Below, piece after piece: positions 8,200-38,187 of a stretch of 64,000 bases of DNA (position 1 is the stretch's first letter; every line of letters starts with the position of its first letter). The DNA is from Escherichia phage LF82-4. The DNA is taken from the sequence record PV660448. One strand, given 5' to 3'. Under the pieces are notes generated by a model. The model was not told where the DNA came from, searched no databases, and saw nothing but the letters and a program-made list of their open reading frames with translations. The position numbers were made by a program, and so were the translations under genes.

Positions 8200-8244
8200 T
8201 TTATTATCCAACGAGAGCATTATACTCTGCTCTCAAGAGTTTGT
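8200..8244. repeat. 45-nt exact repeat, copy 1 (promoter cassette)
   Basis: TTTATTATCCAACGAGAGCATTATACTCTGCTCTCAAGAGTTTGT identical at 8200..8244 and 38143..38187. Confidence 0.9.
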
Positions 8245-8247
8245 GCG
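8219..8247 (-). promoter_or_regulatory. early-type promoter inside duplicated 45-nt cassette (copy 1)
   Basis: Minus strand TATAAT at 8224-8219; weak -35; -10 sits in loop of GAGAGCA/TGCTCTC stem. Confidence 0.4.
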
Positions 8248-8487
8248 TTATTTCGTGATAAGATAATGTAAATAGTTTGCTTGACGAACACTGATATCAA
8301 CACCCATATCAAAGATACCTTTATAGAACGGGTATTTGTTTTCAGTAGAATCTAGACTAAAAGCCTTTCCGCCACAACTAACGGTAATAGCATCAGTTAA
8401 AGTGTCATATACAAACTTAATAGTTGAGCCGTTCACTACAACTTCAAGACGTTTTTTCGATGTAATAATGTCTAATTCTTGTTCCAT
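8248..8487 (-). CDS. hypothetical protein
   Basis: 79 aa ORF. Confidence 0.45.
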   Translation of the reverse strand: MEQELDIITSKKRLEVVVNGSTIKFVYDTLTDAITVSCGGKAFSLDSTENKYPFYKGIFDMGVDISVRQANYLHYLITK

Positions 8488-8542
8488 GATATTCTCCTCA
8501 AATTGGTAGGAAGAAGTGTTATCTTCCTACCATCATAAACTA

Positions 8543-8755
8543 TTAACCGAACTTTTTAGCGCCTTTCCAGCCTTCGTACATAATTGCGCAAGTCAATAGC
8601 ACAGCATGTTGGCATTCTTTGTATTTGTAAATCCAGAACCAGCGTAAAAAGTCTTCATCCTCAACACCGTTGAGTTTCATATTGGCAAAGAATTCGGCAC
8701 GTTCTTCACGAAGCTTTTGCGATAACATAGATTCAGGATTCATTTTGTATTCCAC
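8543..8755 (-). CDS. hypothetical protein
   Basis: 70 aa ORF; start may be internal (MNPESML). Confidence 0.4.
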   Translation of the reverse strand: MEYKMNPESMLSQKLREERAEFFANMKLNGVEDEDFLRWFWIYKYKECQHAVLLTCAIMYEGWKGAKKFG

Positions 8756-8881
8756 GCCCCATTTTCATCGATGAACTTAATCCAGTCATTTACAGACCAT
8801 TTAGTTGTATCACCCTTTGGATTAACATTTAAAGTATATAATCCTTGCTTAAAAAGCATTCGTTTGATATTCATAATTTCC

Positions 8882-9173
8882 TCAACTGTAACGATAACAT
8901 TCGTTAGCTTTACGTTTGGCTTCAGTATGAGAAGTATTATAATCATACTCTTCTTTACTGTAAACATCTTTTTTCAACTTACGAACTTCTTTGCGGAGTT
9001 GTCGATTCATTTCATTCTTGACTTCAGAATCAACACCTTTCATACGTTTCCATTTATCTGAGCGGAAGATGTTTTCAACCATGTCTTTGTGGCTAACACC
9101 GTCAGGAGCTTTACGCTTACCAAAATAGTCGTAATCGCGAACTTTCAAATCTTTACGACGATATGTTTTACCC
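8882..9173 (-). CDS. hypothetical basic protein
   Basis: ORF track 8882..9202; ATG 9173 preferred (GAGGT RBS); lysine/arginine rich. Confidence 0.45.
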
Positions 9174-9182
9174 ATAAGTACC

Positions 9183-9431
9183 TCAGAGGTTGATTGATAC
9201 AATGCGTTTGATAAAATTCACTTCACTTACTGAAAGGTCTTTAAGTCCGATTGATTCTAAACGCTGAGTAAGCGTCAACATCGGGATATAGTCCCAATGA
9301 GTTTTATTTGCTTGATAAGTACGGACGCCATTAGCAATTTCAACATGTAAATCGGAAATGGTAATGAATACCGGATGCTCGTCATTAACTTTAAGGGTTA
9401 GAACAACCTTCTTTGAATCTAAACTAATCAT
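9183..9431 (-). CDS. hypothetical protein
   Basis: 82 aa ORF. Confidence 0.45.
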   Translation of the reverse strand: MISLDSKKVVLTLKVNDEHPVFITISDLHVEIANGVRTYQANKTHWDYIPMLTLTQRLESIGLKDLSVSEVNFIKRIVSINL

Positions 9432-9610
9432 GGCTTAATTTCCTTCGCAATTGAACAGAAGATACTACGGTCACAAAGCATTTCACCAATTTCTGGGTAT
9501 TTGATTGAACGGTACCAAACATCCAGGCTTGAAACTCTGGTTATCTGTACTGCATTACCGTTGACAGAATAGTACTGGTCAACCTTAATTTCTTTATCTT
9601 CAATTGTCAT
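9428..9610 (-). CDS. hypothetical protein
   Basis: ORF track 9428..9730; ATG 9610 preferred (GAGGAAAACAAA ATG). Confidence 0.4.
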   Translation of the reverse strand: MTIEDKEIKVDQYYSVNGNAVQITRVSSLDVWYRSIKYPEIGEMLCDRSIFCSIAKEIKP

Positions 9611-9744
9611 TTTGTTTTCCTCTATAGCAGATGGTTTAATCTTAACATATCTATCGAGGATGTAAACTGTTTTATGAAAATATTTTTGATTTGAGAGGGG
9701 CACAAGGAGATAGTGAAGTGAAGATTCCAATGGATTATATTAGA

Positions 9745-9777
9745 AATGAGATAAAGAAGACCAGGCGGCACCTGGTC
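9745..9777 (-). terminator. intrinsic terminator-like hairpin after glutaredoxin-like gene
   Basis: GACCAGG-CGGCA-CCTGGTC stem overlapping the stop codon, then U-rich tract on minus strand. Confidence 0.5.
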
Positions 9778-10099
9778 AATCTTCTATGATATCAGAGTCG
9801 TATCCTAATGAAATCAAGGACTTTTTAAACTCTGCAATATTCTTTTGTTTCTTATCATTTAAAAATATGACAGGATAACGAATATTAAGTGAAGTGAATC
9901 CTGCACGTTTAGCAAGAGATACGATTAAAGGACGGTCATATTCAATCTTACCATTATTAGTGAGGACTTTATAAAATGTATAAGGAGCATTGAGCTCCTT
10001 TAAAAGTTTTGTAACAGTATAACATCCTGGACAACGTCCAACTTCTTCAGGGATGCCATAAATTTCAATCTTGTTCTTTAAGTTCGAGTTTTGTTCCAC
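9776..10099 (-). CDS. glutaredoxin-like protein (NrdH-like)
   Basis: CPGC redox motif (GRCPGCYTVTKLL); upstream of nrdG/nrdD; in-frame ATGs lie deep inside the preceding ORF, so a GTG start at 10099 with AAGGAA RBS is proposed. Confidence 0.5.
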   Translation of the reverse strand: MEQNSNLKNKIEIYGIPEEVGRCPGCYTVTKLLKELNAPYTFYKVLTNNGKIEYDRPLIVSLAKRAGFTSLNIRYPVIFLNDKKQKNIAEFKKSLISLGYDSDIIED

Positions 10100-10382
10100 G
10101 AGAAATAATTCCTTGGTAAGCCCAATAAGGAGGATTAACCGAATCCTCACCCGAGTTTTCTTCAGGAAAATAAACCTGGATAACGAAGCCGGATTCATCA
10201 AATGTAAAATAAACTGTAGGCAGTTCACCTAACAATTCGGCACGAGCATTAATTTCTTCGAGGTCTTGTTCACGTCCAGCCCAAAAACTAGGATTTAGAT
10301 TACATTCGTAAAAATAATAGTCATTACCGAACATATCAAACCCCTTCCAACTCTCTACCACGTACCGCTCAAAACTAATCAT
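10065..10382 (-). CDS. hypothetical protein
   Basis: 105 aa ORF, acidic/aromatic. Confidence 0.45.
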   Translation of the reverse strand: MISFERYVVESWKGFDMFGNDYYFYECNLNPSFWAGREQDLEEINARAELLGELPTVYFTFDESGFVIQVYFPEENSGEDSVNPPYWAYQGIISRGTKLELKEQD

Positions 10383-10384
10383 AA

Positions 10385-10600
10385 TTAAGCCTTTTTATCA
10401 AGAACAGAATTCAGTTTGTTAGTAATTTTATCCAGACGCTCATTGAACTCATTAGAAGATAAGCCCTTTTCTGGAGAAATTAAACTAATCACGAAAAATA
10501 CACCAGTAAAAGGAATAAGAAAAATAGCTCCAACTGCCATAAACAGAAAGAATGTTACAGTTGTAAGAAAATCAGCTAAACCTTTACGAAATTTATACAT
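10385..10600 (-). CDS. hypothetical small membrane protein
   Basis: 71 aa, one long hydrophobic segment. Confidence 0.45.
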   Translation of the reverse strand: MYKFRKGLADFLTTVTFFLFMAVGAIFLIPFTGVFFVISLISPEKGLSSNEFNERLDKITNKLNSVLDKKA

Positions 10601-10711
10601 ATTTACCCTTAATTAATTAACCAAGCGTTGATAAGCAAACCATATTGCGAATAAAATTCTGGGCCAAAATGAAAAATCATATCATTTATAGTATCCATAA
10701 TATAATTCAAT

Positions 10712-11182
10712 TTAATCATGTTTCCACACCCCATCGGTATTTGACCAAAGTCGCTGATTATCTGATCCTCGCCACAGCTTTTTGGTCGGAAGATTTTTCT
10801 CATACTTCCCATCAATAATAACATCAACATATTTAAGCATTTTTAGTTGTTTAATATCTTCAAACTTATATCCTGTCCACAACCAAATGCTTTTATTGGG
10901 ATAAAGATTTTTAATAGTTTGAACCACAGAGTGAATCACATCTCGGTTATCAGGATAGAGAGGGTCACCTCCGGTTATAGTCAATCCTTCTATATAATCA
11001 TTATTCAAACATTCAATTAATTGTTCTAGTGTTTCACCAGTGAATGGAATACCATTTCTAGCATTCCATGTTGATTTATTATAACACCCTTCGCATTTAT
11101 GCAAACAACCTGTGACGAAAAGAACGACCCTACAACCAGGGCCATTCACAAAATCGCAAGGATAAAATCTATCATAATTCAT
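10712..11182 (-). CDS. nrdG: anaerobic ribonucleotide reductase activating protein NrdG (radical SAM)
   Basis: CxxxCxxC cluster (CLHKCEGC) near N-terminus; immediately downstream of nrdD with ATGA overlap. Confidence 0.9.
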   Translation of the reverse strand: MNYDRFYPCDFVNGPGCRVVLFVTGCLHKCEGCYNKSTWNARNGIPFTGETLEQLIECLNNDYIEGLTITGGDPLYPDNRDVIHSVVQTIKNLYPNKSIWLWTGYKFEDIKQLKMLKYVDVIIDGKYEKNLPTKKLWRGSDNQRLWSNTDGVWKHD

Positions 11183-12996
11183 TGGTGTTTAACCCTATGC
11201 ATGATTTCTTTATTTTTGCCGAGATTAAATCCACGTTCGTTCGGGTTCCCCAAATAACCGCACGTTCTTCTTATGGTGTTCATCTTTTTAGGATCAGTTT
11301 CTCCACAAACTGAACAAACAAATCCATTTTCAGTAGGAGTCATCTCATGGGTACTTCCACACGTAAAACATTTATCTACTGGCATGTTAACACCAAAATA
11401 ATCTAAATGTTGTGCAGCATAATCCCACACGGCCTCAAGACCTTTTAAGTTATTTTTCATATCAGGAAGTTCAACATAAGAAATGTGACCACCTGTCGCA
11501 ATGAAATGATATGGCGCTTCACGAGAAATCTTTTCAAACGGAGTAATATTTTCTTCTACTGAAACATGGAAACTATTAGTGTACCAGCCTTTATCAGTAA
11601 CATCCTTTACACTTCCATATTTTTCTGTATCAAGTTTACAGAAGCGATAACAAAGGTTTTCAGCAGGAGTAGAATACAAGCTAAAAGCAAATCCGGTTCT
11701 TTCAGTCCACTGTTTAAGACGAGCATTCATTTTAGTTAAAATTTCTTGCCCAATATCACGACCGACAAGAATATTCAATTCGTGAATACCAATGTATCCT
11801 AAAGACACTGAACTTCTACCGTTTTTAAATAACTCAATTATGTCGTCATCAGGTTTAAGACGAACCCCGAATGCACCTTCTTGGTAAAGAATAGGAGCAA
11901 CAGTCGCTTTAACACCCTTTAAAGAACTAATTCTACACATCAAGGCTTCAAAACACAGATCCATTCGTTCATTAAATAATTCGATAAATTTCTGTTCATT
12001 GAACTGTGTTCCAATATAAGAATCTAATGCGATACGAGGAAGATTCAGTGTTACAACACCAAGATTATTACGTCCATCAAGAATTTCATTACCAGTCGAA
12101 TCTTTCCATACGCTCAAGAAACTACGGCAGCCCATTGGAGAAACTGGAACTGAAGAACCGGTAATAGCTTTATTATTCTTAACAGAAATAATGTCAGGAT
12201 ACATTCTTTTGCTTGCACATTCTAACGCAAGTTGTTTAATATCATAGTTCGGATCATCTTTATAAAGATTAACACCTTCTTCAACAAACATAACAAGTTT
12301 AGGAAAAATAGGAGTTATTCCATCACGACCAAGACCTTTAATCCGATTTTTCAGAATTGCCTTCTGAATCATTCGTTCAGTCCAATCGGTTCCCGTACCA
12401 AATGTAATTGTTACAAAAGGCGTTTGTCCGTTTGAACTAAAGAGAGTATTTACTTCATATTCATAAGCTTGGAACGCATCGTATACGTCTTTTTCTGTTT
12501 TAGATTGGGCATAATTCAACGCATCAGCGATTTGCCATTTTTCTGCATCCTCAATATGTTTTGCATAGGTGCGTTTAACATAAGGAGAAAGAACTTTATC
12601 GACATTCGCAAATGTAGTTCCGCCATACTGATGTGAAGCAACTTGTGCAGTAATTTGTGCCATAATTGCAGTAGCAACACCAATCGATTTAGGCGTTTCA
12701 ATTTGAGCATTGCCTAATTTAAATCCATTCTCAAGCATCCCCTTTAAATCGACTAAACAGCAATTAGTAAATGGAAGAGCAGGAGAATAATCAATATCAT
12801 GCATATGAATGATTCCGCTTTCATGCGCATTCATAATAAAAGACGGGACCATATTTTTGGCAATGTGCTTAGACACAATACCAGCCATAAGGTCCCGTTG
12901 AGTTGGAAAAACACGAGAATCTTTATTAGCATTCTCGTTCAAAAGATCTTTATTAGTTTTATAAATTAATCCTTCAATTTCTTTTTCAATTTTCAT
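11179..12996 (-). CDS. nrdD: anaerobic ribonucleoside-triphosphate reductase NrdD
   Basis: 605 aa; C-terminal glycyl-radical motif RRTCGYLG and Zn ribbon CFTCG...CSVCG; single uninterrupted ORF. Confidence 0.95.
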   Translation of the reverse strand: MKIEKEIEGLIYKTNKDLLNENANKDSRVFPTQRDLMAGIVSKHIAKNMVPSFIMNAHESGIIHMHDIDYSPALPFTNCCLVDLKGMLENGFKLGNAQIETPKSIGVATAIMAQITAQVASHQYGGTTFANVDKVLSPYVKRTYAKHIEDAEKWQIADALNYAQSKTEKDVYDAFQAYEYEVNTLFSSNGQTPFVTITFGTGTDWTERMIQKAILKNRIKGLGRDGITPIFPKLVMFVEEGVNLYKDDPNYDIKQLALECASKRMYPDIISVKNNKAITGSSVPVSPMGCRSFLSVWKDSTGNEILDGRNNLGVVTLNLPRIALDSYIGTQFNEQKFIELFNERMDLCFEALMCRISSLKGVKATVAPILYQEGAFGVRLKPDDDIIELFKNGRSSVSLGYIGIHELNILVGRDIGQEILTKMNARLKQWTERTGFAFSLYSTPAENLCYRFCKLDTEKYGSVKDVTDKGWYTNSFHVSVEENITPFEKISREAPYHFIATGGHISYVELPDMKNNLKGLEAVWDYAAQHLDYFGVNMPVDKCFTCGSTHEMTPTENGFVCSVCGETDPKKMNTIRRTCGYLGNPNERGFNLGKNKEIMHRVKHQ

Positions 12997-13466
12997 TTTA
13001 AACTCTTTCTAAGCTGCTTTTTGAATGAAGCTATTAATTGTGTTTTAGTATCAGATTCATTATATTCAAATCCTCTTTGAAGCATCTCGGTCATCATTTC
13101 CTCTTTACCTAGTCTTGAGAACTCTTTAGTTTTGTCTGGAACAAAATTAGGATGGATATTATTATCAGAATAATCTTGTTTCAAATAAGCAAGAAGAGCT
13201 TCAAGCCATTCGAGGTAGTCGACATCACGTCCTTTAAGACCGGAACGGTTGAACTTATGCTTCATTTGACCTTCTGCTGCGTTGCACAGATTACAGAGTA
13301 ATCCACGAACTCTACCGGCTTTTGGCCCGTTTAATTCATGGTCGTGGTCAAGATGGTTACCTTGAACATCAGGGTCTAATTCACGGTGGCAAATAGGACA
13401 CTTACCATTCTGTGCATCATAAAATTTTTGTTTTTCTTCTTTATATTTTGCGCCTGATAATAACAT
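12993..13466 (-). CDS. 49: endonuclease VII (Holliday junction resolvase) gp49
   Basis: 157 aa; MLLSGAKYKEEKQKFYDAQNGKCPIC...HLDHDHELNGPKAG... near-identical to T4 endo VII from memory. Confidence 0.95.
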   Translation of the reverse strand: MLLSGAKYKEEKQKFYDAQNGKCPICHRELDPDVQGNHLDHDHELNGPKAGRVRGLLCNLCNAAEGQMKHKFNRSGLKGRDVDYLEWLEALLAYLKQDYSDNNIHPNFVPDKTKEFSRLGKEEMMTEMLQRGFEYNESDTKTQLIASFKKQLRKSLK

Positions 13467-13501
13467 GATAAACCCTTACCTTAAATAGATAAGGGTATTT
13501 A

Positions 13502-13927
13502 TTAACTTAAACGTCTTTCTAAATATTCAATGTATTCTGCGGCTGCTTGCATCAGGTTACCTTCATAGCCGTCGTTATTTTCTTGTCCAGCTAATTTAGC
13601 TAATGCATAAGAAATTCGTTCACCTTCGAATTCACCAAGTTTACTACCTAGCACATCAGCAATATCAGCCGAATCAATTTCTTCGAGTTCATCTATTGAA
13701 TGGGATTCCCAGAAGCACCAAAGAGAAGTATCACGGTCATAGATGCAAAGTTTCTCACCTGTGTTCAACATCACTTCGATAATGCCATGGTCGCCATAAC
13801 CATCTTCGGTAGTAGTACCAATTACCTTGAGGATTGTTCCTTTCTTTAATTCAGGAAACTTGACTTGTAGTTCTTCGTCTTCTTTAACAATCTTGAACCA
13901 TTTACCGCGAGTTTCAGAAATATTCAT
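13502..13927 (-). CDS. hypothetical protein (T4 pin position)
   Basis: ORF track 13502..14065, start moved to MNISETRGKWF (13927); position after gene 49 corresponds to T4 pin; assignment by synteny only. Confidence 0.4.
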   Translation of the reverse strand: MNISETRGKWFKIVKEDEELQVKFPELKKGTILKVIGTTTEDGYGDHGIIEVMLNTGEKLCIYDRDTSLWCFWESHSIDELEEIDSADIADVLGSKLGEFEGERISYALAKLAGQENNDGYEGNLMQAAAEYIEYLERRLS

Positions 13928-13928
13928 A

Positions 13929-14099
13929 TCAATATTCTCTATAAAAGTTACGATGAGAACGTTTAGCTTTGCGAAGCTGACGTTTAGTAGGACGAACTGT
14001 AAATAGTTGTCCAGAGAAAAAATTCGAATCGGTTTTAATAAGCAAATACCAATCATGCTTGCCATTTTTTAATAAACGGTACAATAATTTAACTTGCAT
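13929..14099 (-). CDS. hypothetical small basic protein
   Basis: ORF track 13929..14126; ATG 14099 with GGAAGAG RBS. Confidence 0.35.
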   Translation of the reverse strand: MQVKLLYRLLKNGKHDWYLLIKTDSNFFSGQLFTVRPTKRQLRKAKRSHRNFYREY

Positions 14100-14227
14100 A
14101 ATAATCTCTTCCCATTTCCATATCAATTAATTCATTTATTGAAGGTTCATCATAACATGGTTCTTCGTCGTTGTAAACCGTTTCGACGTCTGGCTCGACA
14201 GTCTCCCATCGAGCAGAATACCACGGT

Positions 14228-14563
14228 TTAACCCCGGAGTTTATTGAGCTCTTCATAATCAATCCAGGATTCTAGCCCTGACGGCAGGTCACATTCAATG
14301 TTCCACAGAAGCTCTTCAATGGCTTGCAGGCGATTATATTCTTCAACAGTAATAGTAACCATTGTTTCAGGCTTTTTAACCATCATGTCATTCATCAGAA
14401 TGTACAGATCTTCACAAACAGCCGGGTCGTCCCATGTCCATATTTCAGCATCTCGAACCAATGAAGTCGGAATAGAATTTAAAACTTCAAGCTTAGTAGG
14501 AGCGTCAGGACCGAGAAGAGTTGCTACAAATTTATATGCTTTGGCGAAATCAATATCGTTCAT
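14228..14563 (-). CDS. hypothetical protein
   Basis: 111 aa acidic ORF. Confidence 0.45.
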   Translation of the reverse strand: MNDIDFAKAYKFVATLLGPDAPTKLEVLNSIPTSLVRDAEIWTWDDPAVCEDLYILMNDMMVKKPETMVTITVEEYNRLQAIEELLWNIECDLPSGLESWIDYEELNKLRG

Positions 14564-14581
14564 TTAAAATATTCTCGCAGT

Positions 14582-16799: not shown

Positions 16800-16823
16800 A
16801 ATATTTTCCTCTCGTTAAGATAG

Positions 16824-16854
16824 ATTTATTATACTCCAACCATCCTTGGTTGTA
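16824..16854. repeat. 31-nt exact repeat, copy 1 (promoter cassette)
   Basis: ATTTATTATACTCCAACCATCCTTGGTTGTA identical at 16824..16854 and 17844..17874; partial third copy near 38663..38690. Confidence 0.9.
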
Positions 16855-16857
16855 AAC
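16828..16857 (-). promoter_or_regulatory. early sigma70-type promoter with spacer stem-loop
   Basis: Minus strand GTTTACA, 17-nt spacer containing CAACCA/TGGTTG inverted repeat, TATAAT. Confidence 0.55.
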
Positions 16858-16861
16858 CGTT

Positions 16862-17821
16862 TTATGATTTTAATGCATTCATTGCATTAAAAAGTTTAGA
16901 GTACTGCAACTGGAGATTCGTTACAACACTTTGAGCATCACGAAGCTTAGCTTGTGCTTTGTCAAGTTCAACGGACAGTTGGTCTGCAGTAGCCTTGATT
17001 TGGTTGTAATGATAATCTTCGGCCGGAAGAAGGTCATTAGAAACATTTAGTTTTACTGCCGACAGTTTGCACACATTTGGCAAACCTTTAAACATACCGG
17101 GTTGTGTCGGAGAATATGCGCTTAGAACCTCTGCATTACCGACTGGTGTTGCTGTAATATTGCCTTCAAACAATGCATTTTCCTTTTTAAGATTTTGATA
17201 GTATTCAGAGTCTTTGTGCCACCATGGCGCAGGAACCTTTTTACCAATAGATACACGAGCCTGGATAGCGATATGGCCCTTATTCTTGATAGGGTCGATA
17301 ATATTAAGCTCACGAGAATAAATTGCTTTAATTTGGTGAATATTATCACCTAACACTTCCAACGCTTGGTGGAATACACGAGCAACGTTATCGTTCTTAG
17401 GTTTATATGTAAGAGTGAACTCGTTCTCACTGATAACCATGATTTCTAACTTATCGTAAGTATATTTCAAATGTTTCATGTTAATTGCTTGAGGACGAAT
17501 ACGAGAAGCAATGGCCATCAGATTGTTAAGGTTATTTCGGAACTGTTTAGCGAAATATTGTCCTTCACCGCCGATACAAAAATTACGAAGTTTCTGTTTG
17601 GCTAATAAACGGCTGAACTCACCATTTTTAATGAACTCTTTAACGGGTGTGTTAGTAATGCATTCAAATTGAGTAAACATACGAGAATTAATCCCATAAT
17701 ATGAACAGATTTCCTCAATCTCTTCAGGAGTCTTTACAGGCATACGGATAGGATTAGGTCCTGGAGTATATGCGTTCGAGGTAAATTCTTTGATAAGTTC
17801 TCTACGTGTAATAAAAGCCAT
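16862..17821 (-). CDS. hypothetical protein with C-terminal coiled coil
   Basis: 319 aa; preceded by duplicated promoter cassette. Confidence 0.55.
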   Translation of the reverse strand: MAFITRRELIKEFTSNAYTPGPNPIRMPVKTPEEIEEICSYYGINSRMFTQFECITNTPVKEFIKNGEFSRLLAKQKLRNFCIGGEGQYFAKQFRNNLNNLMAIASRIRPQAINMKHLKYTYDKLEIMVISENEFTLTYKPKNDNVARVFHQALEVLGDNIHQIKAIYSRELNIIDPIKNKGHIAIQARVSIGKKVPAPWWHKDSEYYQNLKKENALFEGNITATPVGNAEVLSAYSPTQPGMFKGLPNVCKLSAVKLNVSNDLLPAEDYHYNQIKATADQLSVELDKAQAKLRDAQSVVTNLQLQYSKLFNAMNALKS

Positions 17822-17843
17822 TTTATATTCCTCATGTTGAAAA

Positions 17844-17874
17844 ATTTATTATACTCCAACCATCCTTGGTTGTA
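17844..17874. repeat. 31-nt exact repeat, copy 2 (promoter cassette)
   Basis: Identical to 16824..16854. Confidence 0.9.
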
Positions 17875-17877
17875 CAT
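17848..17877 (-). promoter_or_regulatory. early sigma70-type promoter (duplicate of 16828..16857 core)
   Basis: Shares 31-nt identical core with 16824..16854; -35 variant TGTACA. Confidence 0.5.
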
Positions 17878-18872
17878 CATTCCTTAAGAAGTTTTACTAC
17901 TTGAATAAGATTAGCTCGTTCTGTTTTATTTTTACCGTTTAAGCCTGCTAATCGTGAGATTTCATCGTCAGTCTGTTGAATAGTTACATTAAGTTCGTTA
18001 ATCAAAGCTTCAAAGTATTTGATTTGCTCAGCATGTTTTGATTCAAATTTCTGAACCGGAATAACGTCTTGGTTCAGTCCATCAATAAGGTCTTTAAGAG
18101 CATCTTCTTGGTTGATATCATATTCAACTTCCTTTATTTCTTCAACGAGCTCGTCTTTATATCTAACGTCTTTTAGTCCTGGTGCTGGTCCTGAAATCTC
18201 TTCTTTAAGAGTACAAACATACCCAATACGGTATCCAATGCCGTCTCGCTTGATATCAACTTCGTCGATAAATCCACAATGTTTAAGTCCAGAGCCGATT
18301 ATGTCAAAATATCCTTGACGACGTCCTTCAAACGTTACACGAACTACTAAGACAGTTTTGCCACCGACCTTTTGAAGCTCACATTTATAAAAGTCCGTTG
18401 AACCTGAATAACGTGGATGAGTTTTAAAGTTCATCTGACGATCTAGGCCCATTTGTAAACGTGCTGTTACGGCCATAAAACGTGTTTGGTTCTCGTTAAG
18501 ATGAGCAACAATCCATTTCAAAGGCATTTTACACTGTTCACGACCGAACAAATCAGTACGTCCTAGATTACGCAGGATGTTGTTAGAGTTAATCATCGAC
18601 AGAACGTTAAGTTTATTCAACGCGCTGAAGATTCCGTCAGCCATTGATTTTCCATAACCTTTACACGCTTTAATAAGTGCTCGCGGCAGATTAGTATAGA
18701 TTTCAGACGGCATATGAAAATCAAATTTACTAGTCAGTAATTGATGAACTTGGATAGCAATTTGCTCATAATTAAGTGCTCTGCGATCGTTATGGTCTTT
18801 AAACCACACTTTAATCTGTGAAGCACATAAACCGTTAATTTCATGTTTTACCGCATCAGATGTAATGCTCAT
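17877..18872 (-). CDS. hypothetical protein with C-terminal coiled coil
   Basis: 331 aa. Confidence 0.55.
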   Translation of the reverse strand: MSITSDAVKHEINGLCASQIKVWFKDHNDRRALNYEQIAIQVHQLLTSKFDFHMPSEIYTNLPRALIKACKGYGKSMADGIFSALNKLNVLSMINSNNILRNLGRTDLFGREQCKMPLKWIVAHLNENQTRFMAVTARLQMGLDRQMNFKTHPRYSGSTDFYKCELQKVGGKTVLVVRVTFEGRRQGYFDIIGSGLKHCGFIDEVDIKRDGIGYRIGYVCTLKEEISGPAPGLKDVRYKDELVEEIKEVEYDINQEDALKDLIDGLNQDVIPVQKFESKHAEQIKYFEALINELNVTIQQTDDEISRLAGLNGKNKTERANLIQVVKLLKE

Positions 18873-23048: not shown

Positions 23049-23393
23049 ATTATTCACCAATTAAAGTTTCAACAAAATTCACCAAATCATTCTGACGAGC
23101 ATCAACTTGCTTTTCATAGAAGTCTCCGCTATCATTTACTGCGTGATAAGCTACATCATTTAAATCAGTATCGGCTTCACGCAAGTCATGGATAAGGTCC
23201 ATCAATTTATTAGCTTGTTCACGGGTCATTTTACCATACTCGTTTCAATAAGATTCACTATGCCGTTTACCATGTTATAAGTAAACATCGGATAATTGTA
23301 TTGTACTACAACATAAGCGATAAGCAAAAGTTTCATTTTGTTCTCCGTTCGTTTTGGTAGGACTACTATAACATAGTCCTACCAAGATGTAAA

Positions 23394-23627
23394 CTACCGA
23401 TTGTGTTTTAAATGTTGATAAAGTTCTTCAACTTGTTTAGGGTCCAAAACAATTAGGTCATTTTCTTGGCGAAGATAAAGCCATCCCTTATCCCCAGGAC
23501 CATTTTTACAAAACATCGCCACCATATCATCATCTTCAGCGCTTTCAGGTAAAAGTTCAAGCACACCGTCTTCAGATTTTCCAGTATAATCGTAAAGCAT
23601 AATATCCTCACATAATCTCGTTAACAT
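23394..23627 (-). CDS. hypothetical protein
   Basis: 77 aa acidic ORF. Confidence 0.4.
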   Translation of the reverse strand: MLTRLCEDIMLYDYTGKSEDGVLELLPESAEDDDMVAMFCKNGPGDKGWLYLRQENDLIVLDPKQVEELYQHLKHNR

Positions 23628-23826: not shown

Positions 23827-23852
23827 CCTGAGGAGAAGTAAACTGCTAAATG

Positions 23853-23882
23853 CAAAAAAGCCCCAACCTTTCGGAAGGGGCT
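23853..23882 (-). terminator. intrinsic terminator (repeated 24-nt hairpin, copy 1)
   Basis: AGCCCCAACCTTTCGGAAGGGGCT with GNRA-type loop, followed on minus strand by UUUUUU. Confidence 0.6.
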
Positions 23883-24462: not shown

Positions 24463-24470
24463 CAAGGATA
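24463..24470 (-). promoter_or_regulatory. late promoter TATAAATA for membrane protein gene 23887..24444
   Basis: Minus strand TATAAATA 19 nt upstream of ATG 24444. Confidence 0.55.
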
Positions 24471-24474
24471 TTTA

Positions 24475-24505
24475 TACAAAAAGCCCCAACCTTTCGGAAG
24501 GGGCT
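24475..24505 (-). terminator. intrinsic terminator (repeated 24-nt hairpin, copy 2)
   Basis: Identical 24-nt hairpin directly after rI stop, U tract follows. Confidence 0.6.
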
Positions 24506-30829: not shown

Positions 30830-30835
30830 TTTTCC

Positions 30836-31249: not shown

Positions 31250-31307
31250 AATTTCCTCCAAGTAGTTGATGAATGTATAGTATCAAAACCCTTGGAGGAA
31301 GTAAACA

Positions 31308-32074: not shown

Positions 32075-32108
32075 AATACCTCCCACGTTTATAGGAGGTA
32101 TTTATTAC

Positions 32109-32567
32109 TTATAGGATGGTAGTGAGCACCTTGTATAACGATTTGCCCATTACATATTCCCATTGAGAAGGTTTAATTAAAGCGAATGCATCAAATTCAG
32201 GAATCTGTCGTCCGTCTGGGAATGTATGATAGGAATTACAAACACTGTTTCTGAATTGCTCATGCTCTACAGGGATGGTATATAGGAACAGATGAATATT
32301 CTTATTGTCTGAGTAATGATGTTCACCTAGGTCTTTCAGGAAGGCAGGGTCATATTGTGTAAACCCAGTTTCTTCTTCGCATTCACGAATAGCGGCTTCA
32401 ATAGGAGATTCGCCAGGTTCGACACGGCCTTTAGGAATATCCCACCGATGAGCTAATGCACCTTTAGGACGAGAACCAGTTACACGACCCATGAATAATT
32501 CTTTATTTTCGGTAAGGAAAATAATACCGGCAGATAGTTCTTTCACTTTATTTTTCTTACTCATCAT
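32109..32567 (-). CDS. nudE: Nudix hydrolase NudE
   Basis: Nudix box GRVEPGESPIEAAIRECEEETGF; directly after lysozyme gene as T4 e.1. Confidence 0.85.
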   Translation of the reverse strand: MMSKKNKVKELSAGIIFLTENKELFMGRVTGSRPKGALAHRWDIPKGRVEPGESPIEAAIRECEEETGFTQYDPAFLKDLGEHHYSDNKNIHLFLYTIPVEHEQFRNSVCNSYHTFPDGRQIPEFDAFALIKPSQWEYVMGKSLYKVLTTIL

Positions 32568-32793
32568 CTCGGTCCCATGATTTGGCCATTAATTCAGACA
32601 TAAATTCTTCAATGCGCGTTTCTTTAGATGGACTTTCACTATTAGAGACCGCAAGTTTGTAATCTGCAATAGGACGGAACAAATCAAGGTCCATATTAAG
32701 ATCGTCTTTGATTTGTTCTTCAGATACGTCTTTATCATACGTATACAAATAACTATCACCCGATTCTGATTTAACGTAAATTGCTATGCTCAT
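32557..32793 (-). CDS. hypothetical protein
   Basis: 78 aa acidic ORF. Confidence 0.4.
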   Translation of the reverse strand: MSIAIYVKSESGDSYLYTYDKDVSEEQIKDDLNMDLDLFRPIADYKLAVSNSESPSKETRIEEFMSELMAKSWDRDDE

Positions 32794-33188
32794 CTCAAAT
32801 TCCTACATTCGGTAATAAAACGTTCAACTTCATTATTCTTGGCCTTTATCTTGTCTTTACGTTCCTGTAAACTACTTTTAACAAGATTAATAATGATGCC
32901 TATAGTACCTCCACCAATAATACCACCAATAATACTTACGATAGTAGATGCTAATAATATAGCGATAATATCTGGTATGGCAAAGGCACTTACTTTAGTA
33001 CTAAAAAACCATACCGACGGTACAAATATAATCCATCCTGTTATCCATTGGCACTTATTGAAAAACTTTTCAAGCTCAGCTTGAGTTGTTCTTATTACTT
33101 CATCGATAGGTTGATATCCATTAATGTATCTGTTCACGATAATACCTGCTGGCTGGTCGATTTTAAATTCTTGACAAATACGTTTCAC
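32790..33188 (-). CDS. hypothetical membrane protein
   Basis: 132 aa; central glycine/isoleucine-rich hydrophobic stretch. Confidence 0.45.
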   Translation of the reverse strand: MKRICQEFKIDQPAGIIVNRYINGYQPIDEVIRTTQAELEKFFNKCQWITGWIIFVPSVWFFSTKVSAFAIPDIIAILLASTIVSIIGGIIGGGTIGIIINLVKSSLQERKDKIKAKNNEVERFITECRNLR

Positions 33189-33269
33189 TAAGTAGGATGG
33201 ACATCCTGTCCAATCTACTGAATAGTACGAAATACCTTCATTACTTAGACCAATATGTTTTGTTAATCA

Positions 33270-33956
33270 TTACCAGCCTTCCATAGGGAATTCCAGATAA
33301 ACTTGAGCATTGACACGAATTTCATTGGTAATCTTTTTAACTCGGTCTGTATTACGAGATACACGTCCGAACCAACGCCATCCATTACTAATTGCACGAG
33401 AACCAGTGTGCCATGTTTGCCAATCAAACTGAAGAAGAGTACGGTCCGGAGCTTCCCATTTCTCTAGTTCACCTTTTTCAATTTTTTCGAGGACTTCTTT
33501 GTGCCATTGGCGATAGATAAGTTCGCCATCAGGAATCTGACTGAACTCTGCAGTTCCTGTTGCAAAATGAGTAGGACACACGTCAGCGTTAACAAGACCA
33601 AGAATATGTTCAGAATGGTAACGAGGGTTATCATAGTCAGGTTGTCCTGCAGTAATAAAGTGTTGGCCGACTGGAATATCAGGGCGAGGAACATCGTCAT
33701 GGTGATATCCAGGAATAGCAGGATACCAACCAGGCATCAGCATATGAACCCGAGAATCAAATACAACATGTTGATTAGTCCAATCAATTGGGAGATTGGC
33801 AATAAAGCTACGAGTAATAGGACCGCCGTTATCCCAAGCAAAACTCAAATCACAGTTAAAGAACATTGGTTCATTTTTGATTTGGTCATTTTGTACGTTA
33901 TGAGCAAAACCACCTACTGCGCGAGCTTGACTATTAAACACTTTAGAACTATTCAT
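33270..33956 (-). CDS. hypothetical protein (His/Asp-rich, possible metal-dependent enzyme)
   Basis: 228 aa; HHDD and later His residues plus R-x-S near C-terminus could form a 2-His-1-carboxylate site; speculative. Confidence 0.45.
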   Translation of the reverse strand: MNSSKVFNSQARAVGGFAHNVQNDQIKNEPMFFNCDLSFAWDNGGPITRSFIANLPIDWTNQHVVFDSRVHMLMPGWYPAIPGYHHDDVPRPDIPVGQHFITAGQPDYDNPRYHSEHILGLVNADVCPTHFATGTAEFSQIPDGELIYRQWHKEVLEKIEKGELEKWEAPDRTLLQFDWQTWHTGSRAISNGWRWFGRVSRNTDRVKKITNEIRVNAQVYLEFPMEGW

Positions 33957-33957
33957 A

Positions 33958-34263
33958 TTATTTTCCTCGACATTCTTTAATGAAATTTTCTAGATTGGTA
34001 GATTCAATAGCTTTTTTACGAGCTTCTGCATGTTCTTCTTCAGACAATTTACATTTATAATTAACCCAGACGTTATGGTCAAAACTAGTCGTGGCATATA
34101 ATAACAATGCTCCAACGAATAGCAAAAACGGCGATAAGAATACAAAACCAGGAACACCATCCATATCGTAAGCCTTTTGTAATACTGCAACAGAAAGGGC
34201 TGCGTAAAAAGGTGATGCAAATATTGTTAAAAGACCAATTCGGTTGGTTTCGCCTAATTTCAT
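33958..34263 (-). CDS. hypothetical membrane protein
   Basis: 101 aa, two hydrophobic helices; own early promoter upstream. Confidence 0.45.
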   Translation of the reverse strand: MKLGETNRIGLLTIFASPFYAALSVAVLQKAYDMDGVPGFVFLSPFLLFVGALLLYATTSFDHNVWVNYKCKLSEEEHAEARKKAIESTNLENFIKECRGK

Positions 34264-34292
34264 AATATTCTCCTCATGTTTTTAATAGGACT

Positions 34293-34322
34293 ACTATAAC
34301 ATAGTCCTATAATTGTGTAAAC
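34293..34322 (-). promoter_or_regulatory. early sigma70-type promoter with flanking inverted repeat
   Basis: Minus strand GTTTAC -18- TATAGT; arms ATAGGACT/AGTCCTAT around the -10. Confidence 0.5.
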
Positions 34323-34334
34323 AGTTTTGTGAAG

Positions 34335-35291
34335 TTATTTGAAAGGTTTTACCATATGGAAATTTTGTTTGAAACGTTTGACGTAATCATTTTTGCCGAG
34401 CTTATGATACATAGCCACTACTTCATAATAGTTCTCGTATGCGTACTCACGGAACCATCCGGAGGTGATGCTTGTACAGACTTTTTCCAATGCCATCATA
34501 AAACTGGCTTCAGGGTTAATTTTAAAGTTATTAGGAATCTGAGAACGTTCTAATGCTAATACACATGATTCTTCGTATACACCGGCCAATTTGACCATTT
34601 CTGGTAATGATTCGAACTTCTCGCGTGAGGTCATGACTTCAGAACCATCTTTCATATAAAATGTATACGCTGGACGGTCTGTTAGTGCAATGGCTTCATG
34701 AATAGTATCATGGTCATATGTATAGATGTCATCTTTAAAGAACGCACTTTTAGAAGTGTCAAGAACCGGGTGAGCATAGTTCAAAGTTTCTTTCTGGCGT
34801 TTCAACATAATTTCAGTAAGTTCATCGTTCAGTGTAACACCTTTACCACGAAGATACTGAATATGGTTCATAGTCTTTAAAAAGAATGGATTATTTTTCT
34901 TGAAACGATGAGACATCTTAATTGCAAGACATATCTCAGGAGTTGCCCAGTAAAACCCAGTCAAACGGTCTTTAGTCAAATTTTTCTTGGCGTATTTTAA
35001 AAGGTCATAAGAAGATGTGAAATCTTCAGGAGTGAGTTCACCGACTAATTCACGGACATTAGTGATTGCCGGAACAATATATGCTTCAAAATGAGTTTCA
35101 CGTCCATTATGGAAGCATTTGAAAACTTGGACATCAGGGTTATCTTGGTGAACATATACACCCATCATTTGATTTTTGAATACATTCCAAGAACCTTGGT
35201 CCGCAATAAAGTCCCAATCACTATTTTTGATAGCGCTAGAATCAATAAGGCCATGGTAGTGAAGTGCACGAGAACCAATAACTAACATCAT
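34335..35291 (-). CDS. hypothetical protein
   Basis: 318 aa; N-terminal IGSRALHYHG...SDWDFIAD weakly resembles a nucleotidyltransferase GS...DxD motif. Confidence 0.5.
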   Translation of the reverse strand: MMLVIGSRALHYHGLIDSSAIKNSDWDFIADQGSWNVFKNQMMGVYVHQDNPDVQVFKCFHNGRETHFEAYIVPAITNVRELVGELTPEDFTSSYDLLKYAKKNLTKDRLTGFYWATPEICLAIKMSHRFKKNNPFFLKTMNHIQYLRGKGVTLNDELTEIMLKRQKETLNYAHPVLDTSKSAFFKDDIYTYDHDTIHEAIALTDRPAYTFYMKDGSEVMTSREKFESLPEMVKLAGVYEESCVLALERSQIPNNFKINPEASFMMALEKVCTSITSGWFREYAYENYYEVVAMYHKLGKNDYVKRFKQNFHMVKPFK

Positions 35292-35316
35292 AATATTTTC
35301 CTCGAATTTAGATTAC

Positions 35317-35556
35317 TTAAATTTCGCGACATGCGATATTATATTCATCCCAGAGGTCGTCATGTGAAGCCTCTACCAATGGAACGATTGTACCATTTAT
35401 ATCTTCATTATAAGGGCAAATTGTACAGTGCGCATCTTCGAATCGGATGCCTTTGTGTTCAGATTTTTTATAACGCATATCGAATATCTTTGCAAACTTT
35501 TCACGAGTAATAGTTTTAGCAACTACTTCGGTTCCTATACTTTCGTAATAAACCAT
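35317..35556 (-). CDS. hypothetical cysteine-containing protein
   Basis: ORF track 35317..35568; ATG 35556 with GGAG RBS. Confidence 0.4.
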   Translation of the reverse strand: MVYYESIGTEVVAKTITREKFAKIFDMRYKKSEHKGIRFEDAHCTICPYNEDINGTIVPLVEASHDDLWDEYNIACREI

Positions 35557-35618
35557 TGTTGTCTCCATTTAATTTGATAGGACTACTATAACATAGCCCT
35601 ATCTTGTTGTAAACTGTT

Positions 35619-35816
35619 TTAGCAAGAATAACTAGATGATACCCAGCCTTGAACAGTGATACTATTGTGGGATAATGAGATCGCGTCCTGGAGATTCAGA
35701 CCTGCATTATCTTCAATCCACAATGTAACTTCTTCACGCTCTTCGGTTGCAATCTGGAACAGGTTTTCTAGAGCAGCTACGGCCGTACGTACAGCACAAT
35801 CTAATTCACGAGACAT
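35619..35816 (-). CDS. small protein, paralog family member 3 (C-terminal WVSSSYSC)
   Basis: 65 aa; shares C-terminal motif with two upstream ORFs. Confidence 0.45.
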   Translation of the reverse strand: MSRELDCAVRTAVAALENLFQIATEEREEVTLWIEDNAGLNLQDAISLSHNSITVQGWVSSSYSC

Positions 35817-35825
35817 ATGATTTCC

Positions 35826-36098
35826 TTAACAAGTGTGAGAAGATGCAACCCAACCACCAGTTTCGAGGCTCAGGTTGTAGTCGTATTGGTAAACGTCAGC
35901 CCATTCGGCATAACCGTTTTTTGTACAACGTTCAAGATCGGCTTTAAGATGTCCGGGTGAATGATAGGTTCCACCCATACCATAAGCTGGGTACAAGTTG
36001 AATGTTGTGTTTTGTTTATCAGCAATTTCTTTGGCAGCCTCAATAGCTGCATAGATTTTTGCTACAGCTTCAGCCAGTTCGGTTTGTTCTTTAGACAT
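35826..36098 (-). CDS. small protein, paralog family member 2 (C-terminal GGWVASSHTC)
   Basis: 90 aa; starts MSKEQ; shares architecture with 36108..36413. Confidence 0.5.
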   Translation of the reverse strand: MSKEQTELAEAVAKIYAAIEAAKEIADKQNTTFNLYPAYGMGGTYHSPGHLKADLERCTKNGYAEWADVYQYDYNLSLETGGWVASSHTC

Positions 36099-36107
36099 AA
36101 TGATTCC

Positions 36108-36413
36108 TTAGCACAACGCAGAAGATGAAACCCAAGCACCTTCAGTAATAACGTATCCATTACCTTCACGCTTAACATCGCCGCCATTATTTTCAATTTC
36201 ATCTTTCATCCACTGGGATACGATTTCACCCTTAGGATAATAAGTACGACCGCTACCATAATCACCTACAGAAAATGATACGGCATATTGGTCTGCGATC
36301 TTTGTTGCTTCTTCTTCGATACGTTCAGCTTGATTCAGAAGTTTATAAATTGCATCTGAAGCGGATTTGGCATCATTAAACTCTGGTACTTTAATTTCAA
36401 TAATCTTACTCAT
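36108..36413 (-). CDS. small protein, paralog family member 1 (C-terminal GAWVSSSALC)
   Basis: 101 aa; starts MSKII; early-type promoter just upstream. Confidence 0.5.
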   Translation of the reverse strand: MSKIIEIKVPEFNDAKSASDAIYKLLNQAERIEEEATKIADQYAVSFSVGDYGSGRTYYPKGEIVSQWMKDEIENNGGDVKREGNGYVITEGAWVSSSALC

Positions 36414-36511
36414 TTTCTACATTCCTTAATAAAGTTTTCGATTGTTTCATTTTCACGTTTAGCTAGGAGTTCATTATAACTAATCATTTGAGAAGCGTAA
36501 ACAGCATAAAT

Positions 36512-36934
36512 TCAGTTAAGGCTTTTGCATCTTATTTCCTTAACGAATTCCATAGCTTCTTCATATTCATACTTTTTAACAGCTTCATCATACTGAGCTT
36601 GGGCTTTTGCGCACTGAACTTTCCATTCTCTTAATCGGGCTCTGTGATGACGGCCTTGGTACCAATATCCCATCCAGTTAATAGGCATTAATAAAAATGG
36701 TACAATAAGTGGTGCGACGAACATTAATGAAAATGCTGCATCAGACGATATAACTTCACTAGAATCTAAAACGGCTCCTATAATCATAAAGATTAAAAAT
36801 GCTAAAGCTAAAATAGGGCCAAATAGTACTTCATTTGGGATTAATTTACGCTTGTATTCATACGCCCAGGGCTTACTTGGCATGTACAGGGTTGGCTTTG
36901 ACATATTCTCTACATTCCATAATAAATTGCTCAA
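36512..36934 (-). CDS. hypothetical membrane protein
   Basis: 140 aa, two or three transmembrane helices followed by charged tail. Confidence 0.45.
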   Translation of the reverse strand: MSNLLWNVENMSKPTLYMPSKPWAYEYKRKLIPNEVLFGPILALAFLIFMIIGAVLDSSEVISSDAAFSLMFVAPLIVPFLLMPINWMGYWYQGRHHRARLREWKVQCAKAQAQYDEAVKKYEYEEAMEFVKEIRCKSLN

Positions 36935-37475
36935 GGATTAAATTGTTAGTGAAATTAGGACTAACAACCATAGTTTCATAAAGCGCATCAATAGCACTTA
37001 AAGCATCAACTCTCTTAAGCAAAGGCTTGCCTTCATACATAGTTTCAGAATCGACGATTAACGTAAAGTAGTATTTTTTATTATCGACTAGAACTTCTGT
37101 ATCGATATAAAACATATTAGACCTCAGAAGCTTATCTCTAAAACCATAATAATCTTCAGAGCGTTCGCTGATATATTCCCATTCAGTGTTTAAACAACAA
37201 ACAGACCACGTAGGAGCAACGAAATCAGTGAATCTAATATCATAGTCTGCAACTAGTTTAGCAATAGCTCCGATATCATGAATCATAATACCTGGGGCTA
37301 ATAAAGATTTTCTGCTATGGCTAGCCGTTTTCTCAGTGGTTTCATAAGAAGACGACCAATACCATTTACGTCCGGTTGCAACATATCGTAATGAATCAAC
37401 TAAAGACGTAGGTGGATTTACCTTATCTCGGAACTCTTCGAACATTGAGTCAATATCATTATTTTGGTTTCGCAT
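36873..37475 (-). CDS. hypothetical protein
   Basis: ORF track 36873..37496; ATG 37475 with AAAGGAG RBS. Confidence 0.5.
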   Translation of the reverse strand: MRNQNNDIDSMFEEFRDKVNPPTSLVDSLRYVATGRKWYWSSSYETTEKTASHSRKSLLAPGIMIHDIGAIAKLVADYDIRFTDFVAPTWSVCCLNTEWEYISERSEDYYGFRDKLLRSNMFYIDTEVLVDNKKYYFTLIVDSETMYEGKPLLKRVDALSAIDALYETMVVSPNFTNNLILEQFIMECREYVKANPVHAK

Positions 37476-37524
37476 GTTAACTCCTTTATTATCCAAAAGG
37501 AGGACCGGAGTCCTCCGTATTATT

Positions 37525-38118
37525 TTATTTCAAAGAGTTAATATATTCTTGTACATCAGCAGAAGTGGTTTCGACACCGGCTGGAGTGCCATTGAACGTT
37601 TCAACACGAGTCAGAGTGTCTTCGATATCAACCTTAGTCAGTGCAGCGATTTCAATCACATCATCAGCCGTAGAGATACCAAGGGCATTGGCTGCTCGAG
37701 TTTCACGAATGTATTCGAGTTTGATTGCCAGGTTCTGACGAGCATCATCAAGTTCAACCACCTTACGAGCAATTTCAATTCGCATAGCGGCATACCCATC
37801 AGCTTTTGTATTAAGTTGTTCGGCAGTTCGACGATACAGAAGACCAAGCTTAGCATGCATGGTAACATCTTGTCCTTCAGCCAGGAGCTTACGAATTTCA
37901 CGTTCCTTAGAAGCGGCTTGCTTGTTCTTTTCATTAACAAGTTCGCGAATACGTTTTTCTTCATTAATAGATTTAACAGAAGCCGTTTTTAGTTCTTTGA
38001 TTTGGGTAATCAACTTATCTGCAGCTGCGTTATACTGTTCTTCGACAGTCAGATTTTTAGCCATAGCAGTACCCAGTTTAGTGCGGATGAATTCAACAAG
38101 TTTCTTCAGTGTGTTCAT
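37525..38118 (-). CDS. hypothetical coiled-coil protein (PspA-like composition)
   Basis: ORF track 37525..38133; ATG 38118; long heptad-repeat helices; driven by the duplicated 45-nt promoter cassette. Confidence 0.5.
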
Positions 38119-38142
38119 ATTATTACCTTTCAATTGGTGGTT

Positions 38143-38187
38143 TATTATCCAACGAGAGCATTATACTCTGCTCTCAAGAGTTTGTAA
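38143..38187. repeat. 45-nt exact repeat, copy 2 (promoter cassette)
   Basis: Identical to 8200..8244. Confidence 0.9.

Follow-up and report, generated by a model that had tools for sequence, protein, structure and literature searches.

The 64,000 nucleotides of Escherichia phage LF82-4 considered here (PV660448; hereafter the window, within which all positions are counted) belong to a T-even, Mosigvirus-like phage and contain an exact 45-nt repeat whose two copies lie 30 kb apart, each in the gap between two genes. The surroundings of the first copy (region 7000-12000) are 100% identical to Escherichia phage LF82-1, and those of the second (region 36500-39500) are about 96% identical to Mosigvirus genomes, for example O157 typing phage 3. 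The genes near both copies all lie on the minus strand, and the 45-mer, TTTATTATCCAACGAGAGCATTATACTCTGCTCTCAAGAGTTTGT on the plus strand, must therefore be read as its reverse complement, ACAAACTCTTGAGAGCAGAGTATAATGCTCTCGTTGGATAATAAA. The two copies, referred to below as the cassette, and their flanking genes are:

8248-8487, minus strand: gene upstream of copy 1, at the position of 55.3, a diverged allele
8200-8244, minus strand: cassette copy 1, the exact 45-mer, with the stop codon of the 55.3-like gene before it and the ribosome-binding site of the 55.2 homologue after it
7849-8181, minus strand: gene downstream of copy 1, homologue of T4 55.2 (DUF7570)
38189-38416, minus strand: gene upstream of copy 2, encoding a Frd3-family protein (Pfam PF05798, E = 1.3e-38)
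38141-38185, minus strand: cassette copy 2, the exact 45-mer, with the stop codon of the Frd3-family gene before it and the ribosome-binding site of the e.6 homologue after it
37525-38118, minus strand: gene downstream of copy 2, homologue of T4 e.6 (phrog_1203, function unknown)

A search of the window for exact matches finds the plus-strand form at 8200-8244 and 38141-38185, with no third copy in the window at up to three mismatches; none of 100 dinucleotide-preserving shuffles contains a match, and none is expected by chance. Identity is exact over the 45 nt, and a looser similarity of 82% extends over 78 nt (repeat family D12). The first-pass annotation, which had described an exact duplication 30 kb apart, is confirmed by this search, and its first interval was correct; the second, given as 38143-38187, was 2 nt off. 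Its further statements, that TATAAT lies within a GAGAGCA/TGCTCTC stem and that each copy precedes a ribosome-binding site and the open reading frame (ORF) 7849-8181 or 37525-38118, also hold in both copies, on the minus strand. Ribosome-binding site and start codon follow 20-25 nt beyond the end of the cassette, as GAGG, 8 nt and the ATG at 8181 for copy 1 and as AAGG, 8 nt and the ATG at 38118 for copy 2.

The 45-mer holds the last 3 nt (ACA) of a -35 box, a 17-nt spacer and a TATAAT located in the hairpin loop. The two sites read as follows:

38160-38188, minus strand: complete promoter of the sigma-70/T4-early type at copy 2, TTTACA, 17 nt, TATAAT, matching 11 of 12 consensus positions
8242-8247, minus strand: -35 hexamer position of copy 1, CGCACA, matching TTGACA at 3 of 6 positions, with only ACA within the repeat

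At copy 2 the three flanking bases complete the -35 box, the consensus scan calls a promoter at 11/12 and the 17-nt spacing fits the T-even pattern, from which we infer an active early promoter. Copy 1 combines a perfect -10 box with CGCACA; its strength as a promoter is doubtful because only the last 3 nt of this hexamer belong to the repeat, and it may be a weak promoter. Other promoter classes were rejected for both copies: the MotA box TGCTTtA of T4 middle promoters is absent 11-13 nt upstream of the -10 box, and the late box TATAAATA is absent at its required position.

The inverted repeat around the -10 box can be drawn in both copies as a hairpin with a 7-bp stem and an 8-nt loop that contains the box:

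8213-8234, minus strand: hairpin of copy 1, GAGAGCA, loop GAGTATAA, TGCTCTC, with the -10 TATAAT at 8219-8224 (fold and covariation)
38154-38175, minus strand: hairpin of copy 2, enclosing the -10 box (fold and covariation)

The predicted folding energy of the 45-mer is -12.6 kcal/mol for RNA (z = -3.2) and -6.3 kcal/mol for DNA. We rejected a reading as canonical intrinsic terminator, since no U-run stands behind the stem, which is followed by GUUGGAUAAUAAA; the terminator scan does not call it, and the same scan calls the neighbouring hairpin at 37499-37516. Neither copy falls within an Rfam family, the sole gathering-level match in the window being one tRNA.

On the coding strand both cassettes end in GGAUAAUAAA(A), which corresponds to the consensus of sites for the RegB/S1 endoribonuclease; their last 10-11 nt read GGATAATAAA(A). 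The first-pass annotation had overlooked this 3' third, although its reading as a promoter cassette holds. The features concerned are:

8199-8209, minus strand: putative RegB/S1 site of copy 1, GGATAATAAAA, 11/11 against GGAKRAYARAA, the same 11-mer as in the T4 55.2 leader
38141-38150, minus strand: RegB/S1-type site of copy 2, GGATAATAAA, 10/11 positions, the eleventh base being C (11-mer GGATAATAAAC)
37485-37516, minus strand: half cassette without promoter, ahead of the next gene, hairpin GGAGGAC-TCCG-GTCCTCC, TTTT, then GGATAATAAA
27581-28039, minus strand: regB, the endoribonuclease predicted to cut the GGAU of the cassette (Pfam REGB_T4, E = 1.5e-68)

The pattern GGAKRAYARAA occurs five times in the window against 1.1 expected, four times on the strand of the early transcripts. 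Strong RegB/S1 sites share the 11-nt consensus GGAGAAUAAAA (GG*AGRAYARAA) (PMC1702504; PMC3014915), and GGAU is tolerated by RegB only when followed by a strict A-rich 3' part (PMC1702504). Thirty intergenic GGAU motifs were tested in T4, of which only those at ORF 55.2 and motB.2 were cut, and RB69 has one GGAU site at which RegB cuts (PMC1702504). The T4 motB mRNA is cut efficiently at a GGAG and serves as a model substrate (PMC1702504); this GGAG, GGAGUAUAAAA, stands at the cassette position, and the positions described for the motB[denV] chimera fit (PMC1702504). RegB cleavage needs no nucleotide 5' of GGAG (PMC1702504), so the cassette's own transcript should be cut as well and thereby lose its triphosphate end.

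The link to motB extends over the entire element. The T4 region upstream of motB, GTTTACAAACTCTTGGGACCAGAGTATAATGGTCCCGTGGAGTATAAAA, is homologous to the cassette at 84% identity, and the same homology is seen in hundreds of T4-type records; 716 records contained related sequences in a blastn search of phage genomes. One copy is detectable in T4 and its close relatives, directly upstream of motB (GTTTACAAACTCTTGGGACCAGAGTATAATGGTCCCGTGGAGTATAAAATC); it is a textbook T4 early promoter, which has been mapped by reverse-transcriptase stops and primer extension (PMC1702504, legend of Fig. 5). Cassette and T4 motB leader (Durand et al., 2006, PMC1702504) share the -35 TTTACA, the start of the spacer (AACTCTTG), AGAGTATAAT in the hairpin loop, and GGAG or GGAU followed by an A-rich 7-mer. 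They differ in the stem arms, which are GGGACC/GGTCCC in T4 and GAGAGC/GCTCTC in the window and thus related by compensatory changes, in having GGAG in T4 and GGAU in the window, and in their genes, which in the window are homologues of 55.2 and e.6 instead of motB. Judged by this homology, the cassette is a paralogue of the T4 motB early promoter. The homology, together with the near-consensus boxes of copy 2, also supports the initial proposal of a promoter cassette placed ahead of unrelated genes.

We collected 16 distinct members of this family from T4, Mosigvirus, Gaprivervirus, Dhakavirus, Kanagawavirus and Marfavirus genomes and from IMG/VR and metagenome contigs. A degenerate-pattern search of IMG/VR yielded mostly chance matches and few true members; a pattern scan of metagenomes was similarly noisy but gave useful complete genomes. 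At least six genes lie downstream of family members, namely motB, 55.2, e.6, ndd, an SP18 gp277-like ORF and an ORF of the pseT region, and related genomes hold up to four detectable copies each. LF82-1, the closest sequenced genome, was read over its first 150 kb and has four members, at 55.2 (45/45 against the window 45-mer), e.6 (44/45), ndd (identical over 32 nt) and in the pseT region (more diverged), three of which have the same stem; the copy expected at motB was not found in these 150 kb.

By its sequence layout the 45-mer also fits the structural definition of a PeSL (promoter-early stem-loop), and the phenomenon as such is already published. PeSLs (Arbiol et al., 2010, PMC2839356; Comeau et al., 2014, PMC4122927) run from a stop codon through -35 and -10 boxes, with a stem-loop mostly between the boxes or overlapping the -10, to a Shine-Dalgarno sequence and an ATG (PMC2839356), and their T-even promoter consensus is TTTACW N17 TAYWAT (PMC4122927). 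The window copies share the intergenic position, beginning 3 nt past the TAA of the upstream gene, the sigma-70-like boxes with a 17-nt spacer (complete at copy 2, and at copy 1 with CGCACA in the -35 position), the stem-loop overlapping the -10 box (one of the two commonest layouts) and the Shine-Dalgarno sequence and ATG that follow. Other common traits are repetition within a genome, a location beside small variable early genes and at indel or replacement junctions, and cassette-ORF-cassette arrangements. In RB49 and phi1, promoter activity, terminator activity and recombination between PeSL copies have been demonstrated, and in RB49 a cassette-ORF-cassette layout yielded mini-circles (PMC2839356). 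The window copies differ in that their stem is A/G-rich instead of GGGG/CCCC and lacks a U-tract, that their subfamily adds a RegB/S1 module, and that they stand 30 kb apart and do not bracket a single ORF. Neither PeSL paper mentions RegB or gene conversion (PMC2839356; PMC4122927), and the RegB module and the evidence on covariation and homogenisation given below are therefore small additions to that work.

Taking these features together, we assign a probability of about 0.8 to the reading that the 45-mer is a composite early-gene cassette of the PeSL class, belonging to the family of the motB promoter, which has been spread and homogenised by recombination or conversion and of which copy 1 has recently been converted. 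Such a cassette would combine a sigma-70 type T4 early promoter (-35 TTTACA, 17 nt, -10 TATAAT), a 7-bp hairpin with the -10 box in its loop, and an 11-nt RegB/S1 site, GGAUAAUAAA(A), located some 3-4 nt past the predicted transcription start. Host RNA polymerase would initiate early transcription at the cassette, while transcripts reading through from upstream would fold the hairpin and undergo attenuation or, after the RegB cut, gain protection of their 3' end. Cleavage of the GGAU just past the hairpin would separate the cistrons, and the same cut on the cassette's own transcript would strip the triphosphate 5' end and could accelerate decay of the early mRNA. Homologous recombination or gene conversion between copies would spread and homogenise the cassette, the edges of which may act as exchange junctions for neighbouring gene modules. 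Copy 1 would have been converted to the sequence of copy 2 by a tract that ended inside the -35 box; an end at this point would have left copy 1 with its poor -35, so that it may be mainly an element of hairpin plus RegB site.

Several points weigh against this reading in one or another of its parts. Copy 1 has CGCACA as -35 hexamer and lacks a TGn motif, the consensus scan does not call it as a promoter, and a terminator role in the PeSL sense is unsupported for a hairpin without a U-tract behind it. RegB cuts GGAU less well than GGAG (PMC1702504), and site 2 agrees with the RegB/S1 pattern at only 10 of 11 positions. Mosaic junctions persist at gene boundaries with or without a cassette, so that their coincidence is no proof of mediation. 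The homogenisation may have proceeded by conversion from site 2 or from the ndd copy, or by import through recombination with another phage. More generally, every activity of the cassette in this phage is predicted from homology and consensus.

The alternative that survives best concerns site 1 only, and states that a hairpin plus RegB site act there as an RNA-processing signal between 55.3 and 55.2, that TATAAT is a passenger and that copy 2 alone works as a promoter. In its favour is the same junction in T4, the leader of which (hairpin plus GGAUAAUAAAA, cut by RegB, PMC1702504) occupies the locus of copy 1 and has the 11-mer GGATAATAAAA just past its hairpin, but whose hairpin carries a TTCG tetraloop and a T-run after it, with no -10 box and hence no promoter. 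The hairpin is followed there by TTTTTGGATAATAAAA, and the 55.2 GGAU is one of the only two intergenic GGAU cut in T4 (PMC1702504); which of the two GGAU in this leader is the one cut is our own assignment, made on the sequence because GGAU needs a strict A-rich 3' part (PMC1702504). The promoterless half cassette at 37485-37516 repeats the hairpin-plus-site architecture found upstream of T4 55.2, and the uncalled CGCACA hexamer of copy 1 points in the same direction. Against this, other site-1 alleles of Mosigviruses and of a Marfavirus retain a usable -35 box (TATACA, TGTACA, TTTAAG), the -10 box of copy 1 is perfect, and A/T-rich elements upstream also strengthen T4 early promoters. We hold such a signal at site 1 to be possible but not probable.

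That the hairpin belongs to the composite cassette as an RNA, or one-strand, structure is indicated by covariation. In the ungapped alignment of the 16 members, which covers six genera (five of the Tevenvirinae plus Marfavirus), the stem is paired in 98.2% of cells and five of the seven pairs have changed on both sides; none of 500 shuffles reached the observed covariation, and partner columns slid out of register are only 41-51% paired. The 5' arms read GGGACC, GGGGCC, GGGATC, GGGAGC, GAGAGC, GAGAGA and GAGGAC, each with a matching 3' arm, and an eighth variant, GGGGTC/GACCCC, was found later. Could the inverted repeat act instead at the level of DNA, either bound by a dimeric regulator or a recombination protein, or exposing the -10 box by forming a cruciform? 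The dyad is indeed centred on that box, many other early promoters of the window have 10-13-bp dyads in the same place, and Arbiol et al. speculated on a DNA-binding protein that targets the stem (PMC2839356); a search of the window for T[TGA]TAC[AT]-N17-TA[TC][AT][AG]T gives 15 matches, all on the minus strand and all overlapping a stem of 5-13 bp. The sequence of the arms is, however, unconserved and covaries, which argues against a sequence-specific operator. The non-Watson-Crick cells of the stem alignment comprise eight G.U and no A.C, which implies that pairing is kept on the sense strand and fits RNA, or a single DNA strand, but not a symmetric cruciform. The stem would accordingly be an RNA or one-strand structure, and a function as DNA dyad appears quite unlikely.

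The recent exchange postulated for the cassette finds its evidence in sister genomes and at the edges of the repeat. Two complete metagenomic genomes and NRG-P0074 have GAGAGA/TCTCTC at the 55.2 locus, and the same two metagenomic genomes have GAGAGC/GCTCTC at the e.6 locus, the loci differing at 3 positions. Since both versions of the stem pair, function does not require the two loci of the window to be perfectly identical, and these comparisons make recent conversion or recombination the best explanation of their identity. Orthologous loci in other genera bear other stems, while three loci of LF82-1 share one, as would be expected from homogenisation within a genome or from lineage-specific spread. 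Compared with other Mosigviruses, site 1 has an identity of 73-75% over the 300 nt upstream and of 95-96% over the 300 nt downstream, with the differences clustered in the last ~55 nt ahead of the cassette. At site 2 the upstream gene of an environmental contig (L015) is unrelated and meets the cassette exactly at the -35 box, while the sequence downstream is 99% identical. The 45-nt identity itself stops abruptly at both edges, on one side inside the -35 box. Two cassette copies ~410 bp apart enclose a single 112-aa ORF in SP18 and in two environmental contigs. In SP18 (L177) these copies occupy 701-732 and 1108-1139, the enclosed gp277-like ORF stands between ndd.1 and ndd, as it also does in L016 and L147, and the pair has different compensating stems, GGGAGC/GTTCCC and GGGGTC/GACCCC.

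The variation among sister genomes and the jump in divergence at the edges thus indicate, within the limits of sequence comparison, that the cassette was recently copied or converted and that recombination took place there. An exchange that survived would more likely be gene conversion than deletion, because the copies are separated by 30 kb across a long block of early genes. The first-pass annotation had left the choice between recent copying and strong constraint; copying is borne out, but constraint is not, as sister genomes carry non-identical versions at both loci. Its suggestion of a substrate for module shuffling gains support from the coincidence of cassette edges with mosaic junctions. 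The corresponding alternative, that purifying selection on an optimal promoter maintained the copies independently or made them converge, with no recent copying or recombination, can draw on ACTCTTG, AGTATAAT and GGA, which are nearly invariant across the family. It is nevertheless very improbable, given the functional variants with other stems at the same loci of sister genomes, stem positions that are free to covary yet are identical in the window, and the sharp end of identity at both edges. That the repeat is an assembly artefact, finally, has practically no probability, as nothing was found in its favour, the repeat is shorter than one sequencing read, and both loci, each with its own distinct flanks, carry the cassette in LF82-1, O157 typing phage 3 and several IMG/VR and metagenome contigs, that is, in many independently sequenced genomes.

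A more far-reaching version of the composite-cassette reading is offered here tentatively, and we think it fairly improbable. In this version the PeSL subfamily would be a three-part mobile unit, made up of early promoter, covarying RNA hairpin and RegB/S1 site, in concerted evolution across loci tens of kb apart, in which the location of the promoter inside the hairpin would make the fate of the RNA depend on the origin of transcription: read-through RNA would fold the hairpin, with ACUCU masking the RegB site in members of the GGAG type, and RNA started at the cassette would expose the site at its extreme 5' end. A comparable case is known from T4 genes e, 49 and similar ones, where a promoter lies inside a hairpin and long and short transcripts fold differently (PMC3014915). 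The resemblance covers the hairpin-embedded promoter and the two kinds of RNA, read-through RNA with both arms and own transcripts without the 5' arm; in T4, however, the promoter is a late one and the hairpin masks the ribosome-binding site, whereas the promoter of the window cassette is early. Folding predictions are divided. For GGAG members of the motB type the GGA has an unpaired probability of 0.02-0.07 in read-through RNA against 0.35-0.95, and for the window copies the values are 0.2-0.6 in read-through and own transcripts alike. Masking of the RegB GGA is thus predicted for the motB type and inconsistent for the GGAU copies of the window, and the idea that the conserved ACUCU spacer masks it only in read-through RNA is speculation built on these folds.

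Some further observations concern the neighbouring genes and the other repeats of the window. In LF82-1 the 55.2 homologue (XUL00375.1, record positions 113352-113723, 123 aa) is annotated as starting at the ATG of the TATAATG in the hairpin loop, window 8218-8220. The ATG at 8181, which gives 110 aa, is preceded by a GAGG ribosome-binding site, aligns with the start of T4 55.2 and is the likelier start; a practical yield of the analysis is the flagging of a probably wrong start codon in a public annotation, with its ATG inside the -10 loop. The Frd3-family gene at 38189-38416 occupies the position of T4 e.7, far from the frd region that houses T4 frd.3, and exemplifies a small early gene at a different locus.

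Early promoters with 10-13-bp dyads around the -10 box lie on the minus strand at 23349-23400, 34277-34328, 35569-35620, 41506-41557, 41886-41937 and 42241-42292 (repeat families D1-D9; for example ATAGGACTAT-gttata-GTAGTCCTAT). The 31-mer pair pointed out in the first-pass annotation forms a further duplicated cassette with an early promoter, at 16812-16863 and 17839-17881 on the minus strand, with GTTTACA or TGTACA, 17 nt and TATAAT, and with a CAACCA-AGGA-TGGTTG stem in the spacer, a different PeSL layout; a distance of 1020 nt separates its copies, which share 88% identity over 43 nt. A terminator-like sequence of hairpin plus T-run, AGCCCCTTCCGAAAGGTTGGGGCTTTTT, recurs on the minus strand at 23846-23882, 24469-24505 and 39081-39117, with 76-92% identity over 37 nt. 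At ~39000-39120 the window is without one ORF that is present in most relatives and has 208 aa in LF82-1 (LF82-1 L005 3612-4238; O157 typing phage 3 L007 3607-4071); phage ECO111 5-P has the same shorter arrangement. The missing ORF sits between the repeated terminator-like hairpin and the next early promoter, a hairpin-bounded one-gene indel separate from the 45-mer. The cassette was accordingly rejected as the place of the 0.5-0.7 kb length difference from relatives in 36.5-39.5 kb, which belongs to this indel near 39.0-39.1 kb. The interval 38500-42500 has a single tRNA gene, tRNA-Met at 40491-40562 (ARAGORN, Rfam); the annotation of LF82-1 lists a tRNA-Arg next to a tRNA-Met, and the corresponding region of T4 holds eight tRNAs.

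Should the three-part unit prove true, removal of the triphosphate end by RegB would start a decay timer built into every early gene that takes up the cassette. These results leave the present view of T4 biology as it stands; to the PeSL picture they add that compensatory changes maintain the stem around the -10 box in several genera and that one subfamily has a RegB site. The cassette itself is a clean, well-delimited case of the movement of ready-made expression signals from one early gene to another in T4-like phages.

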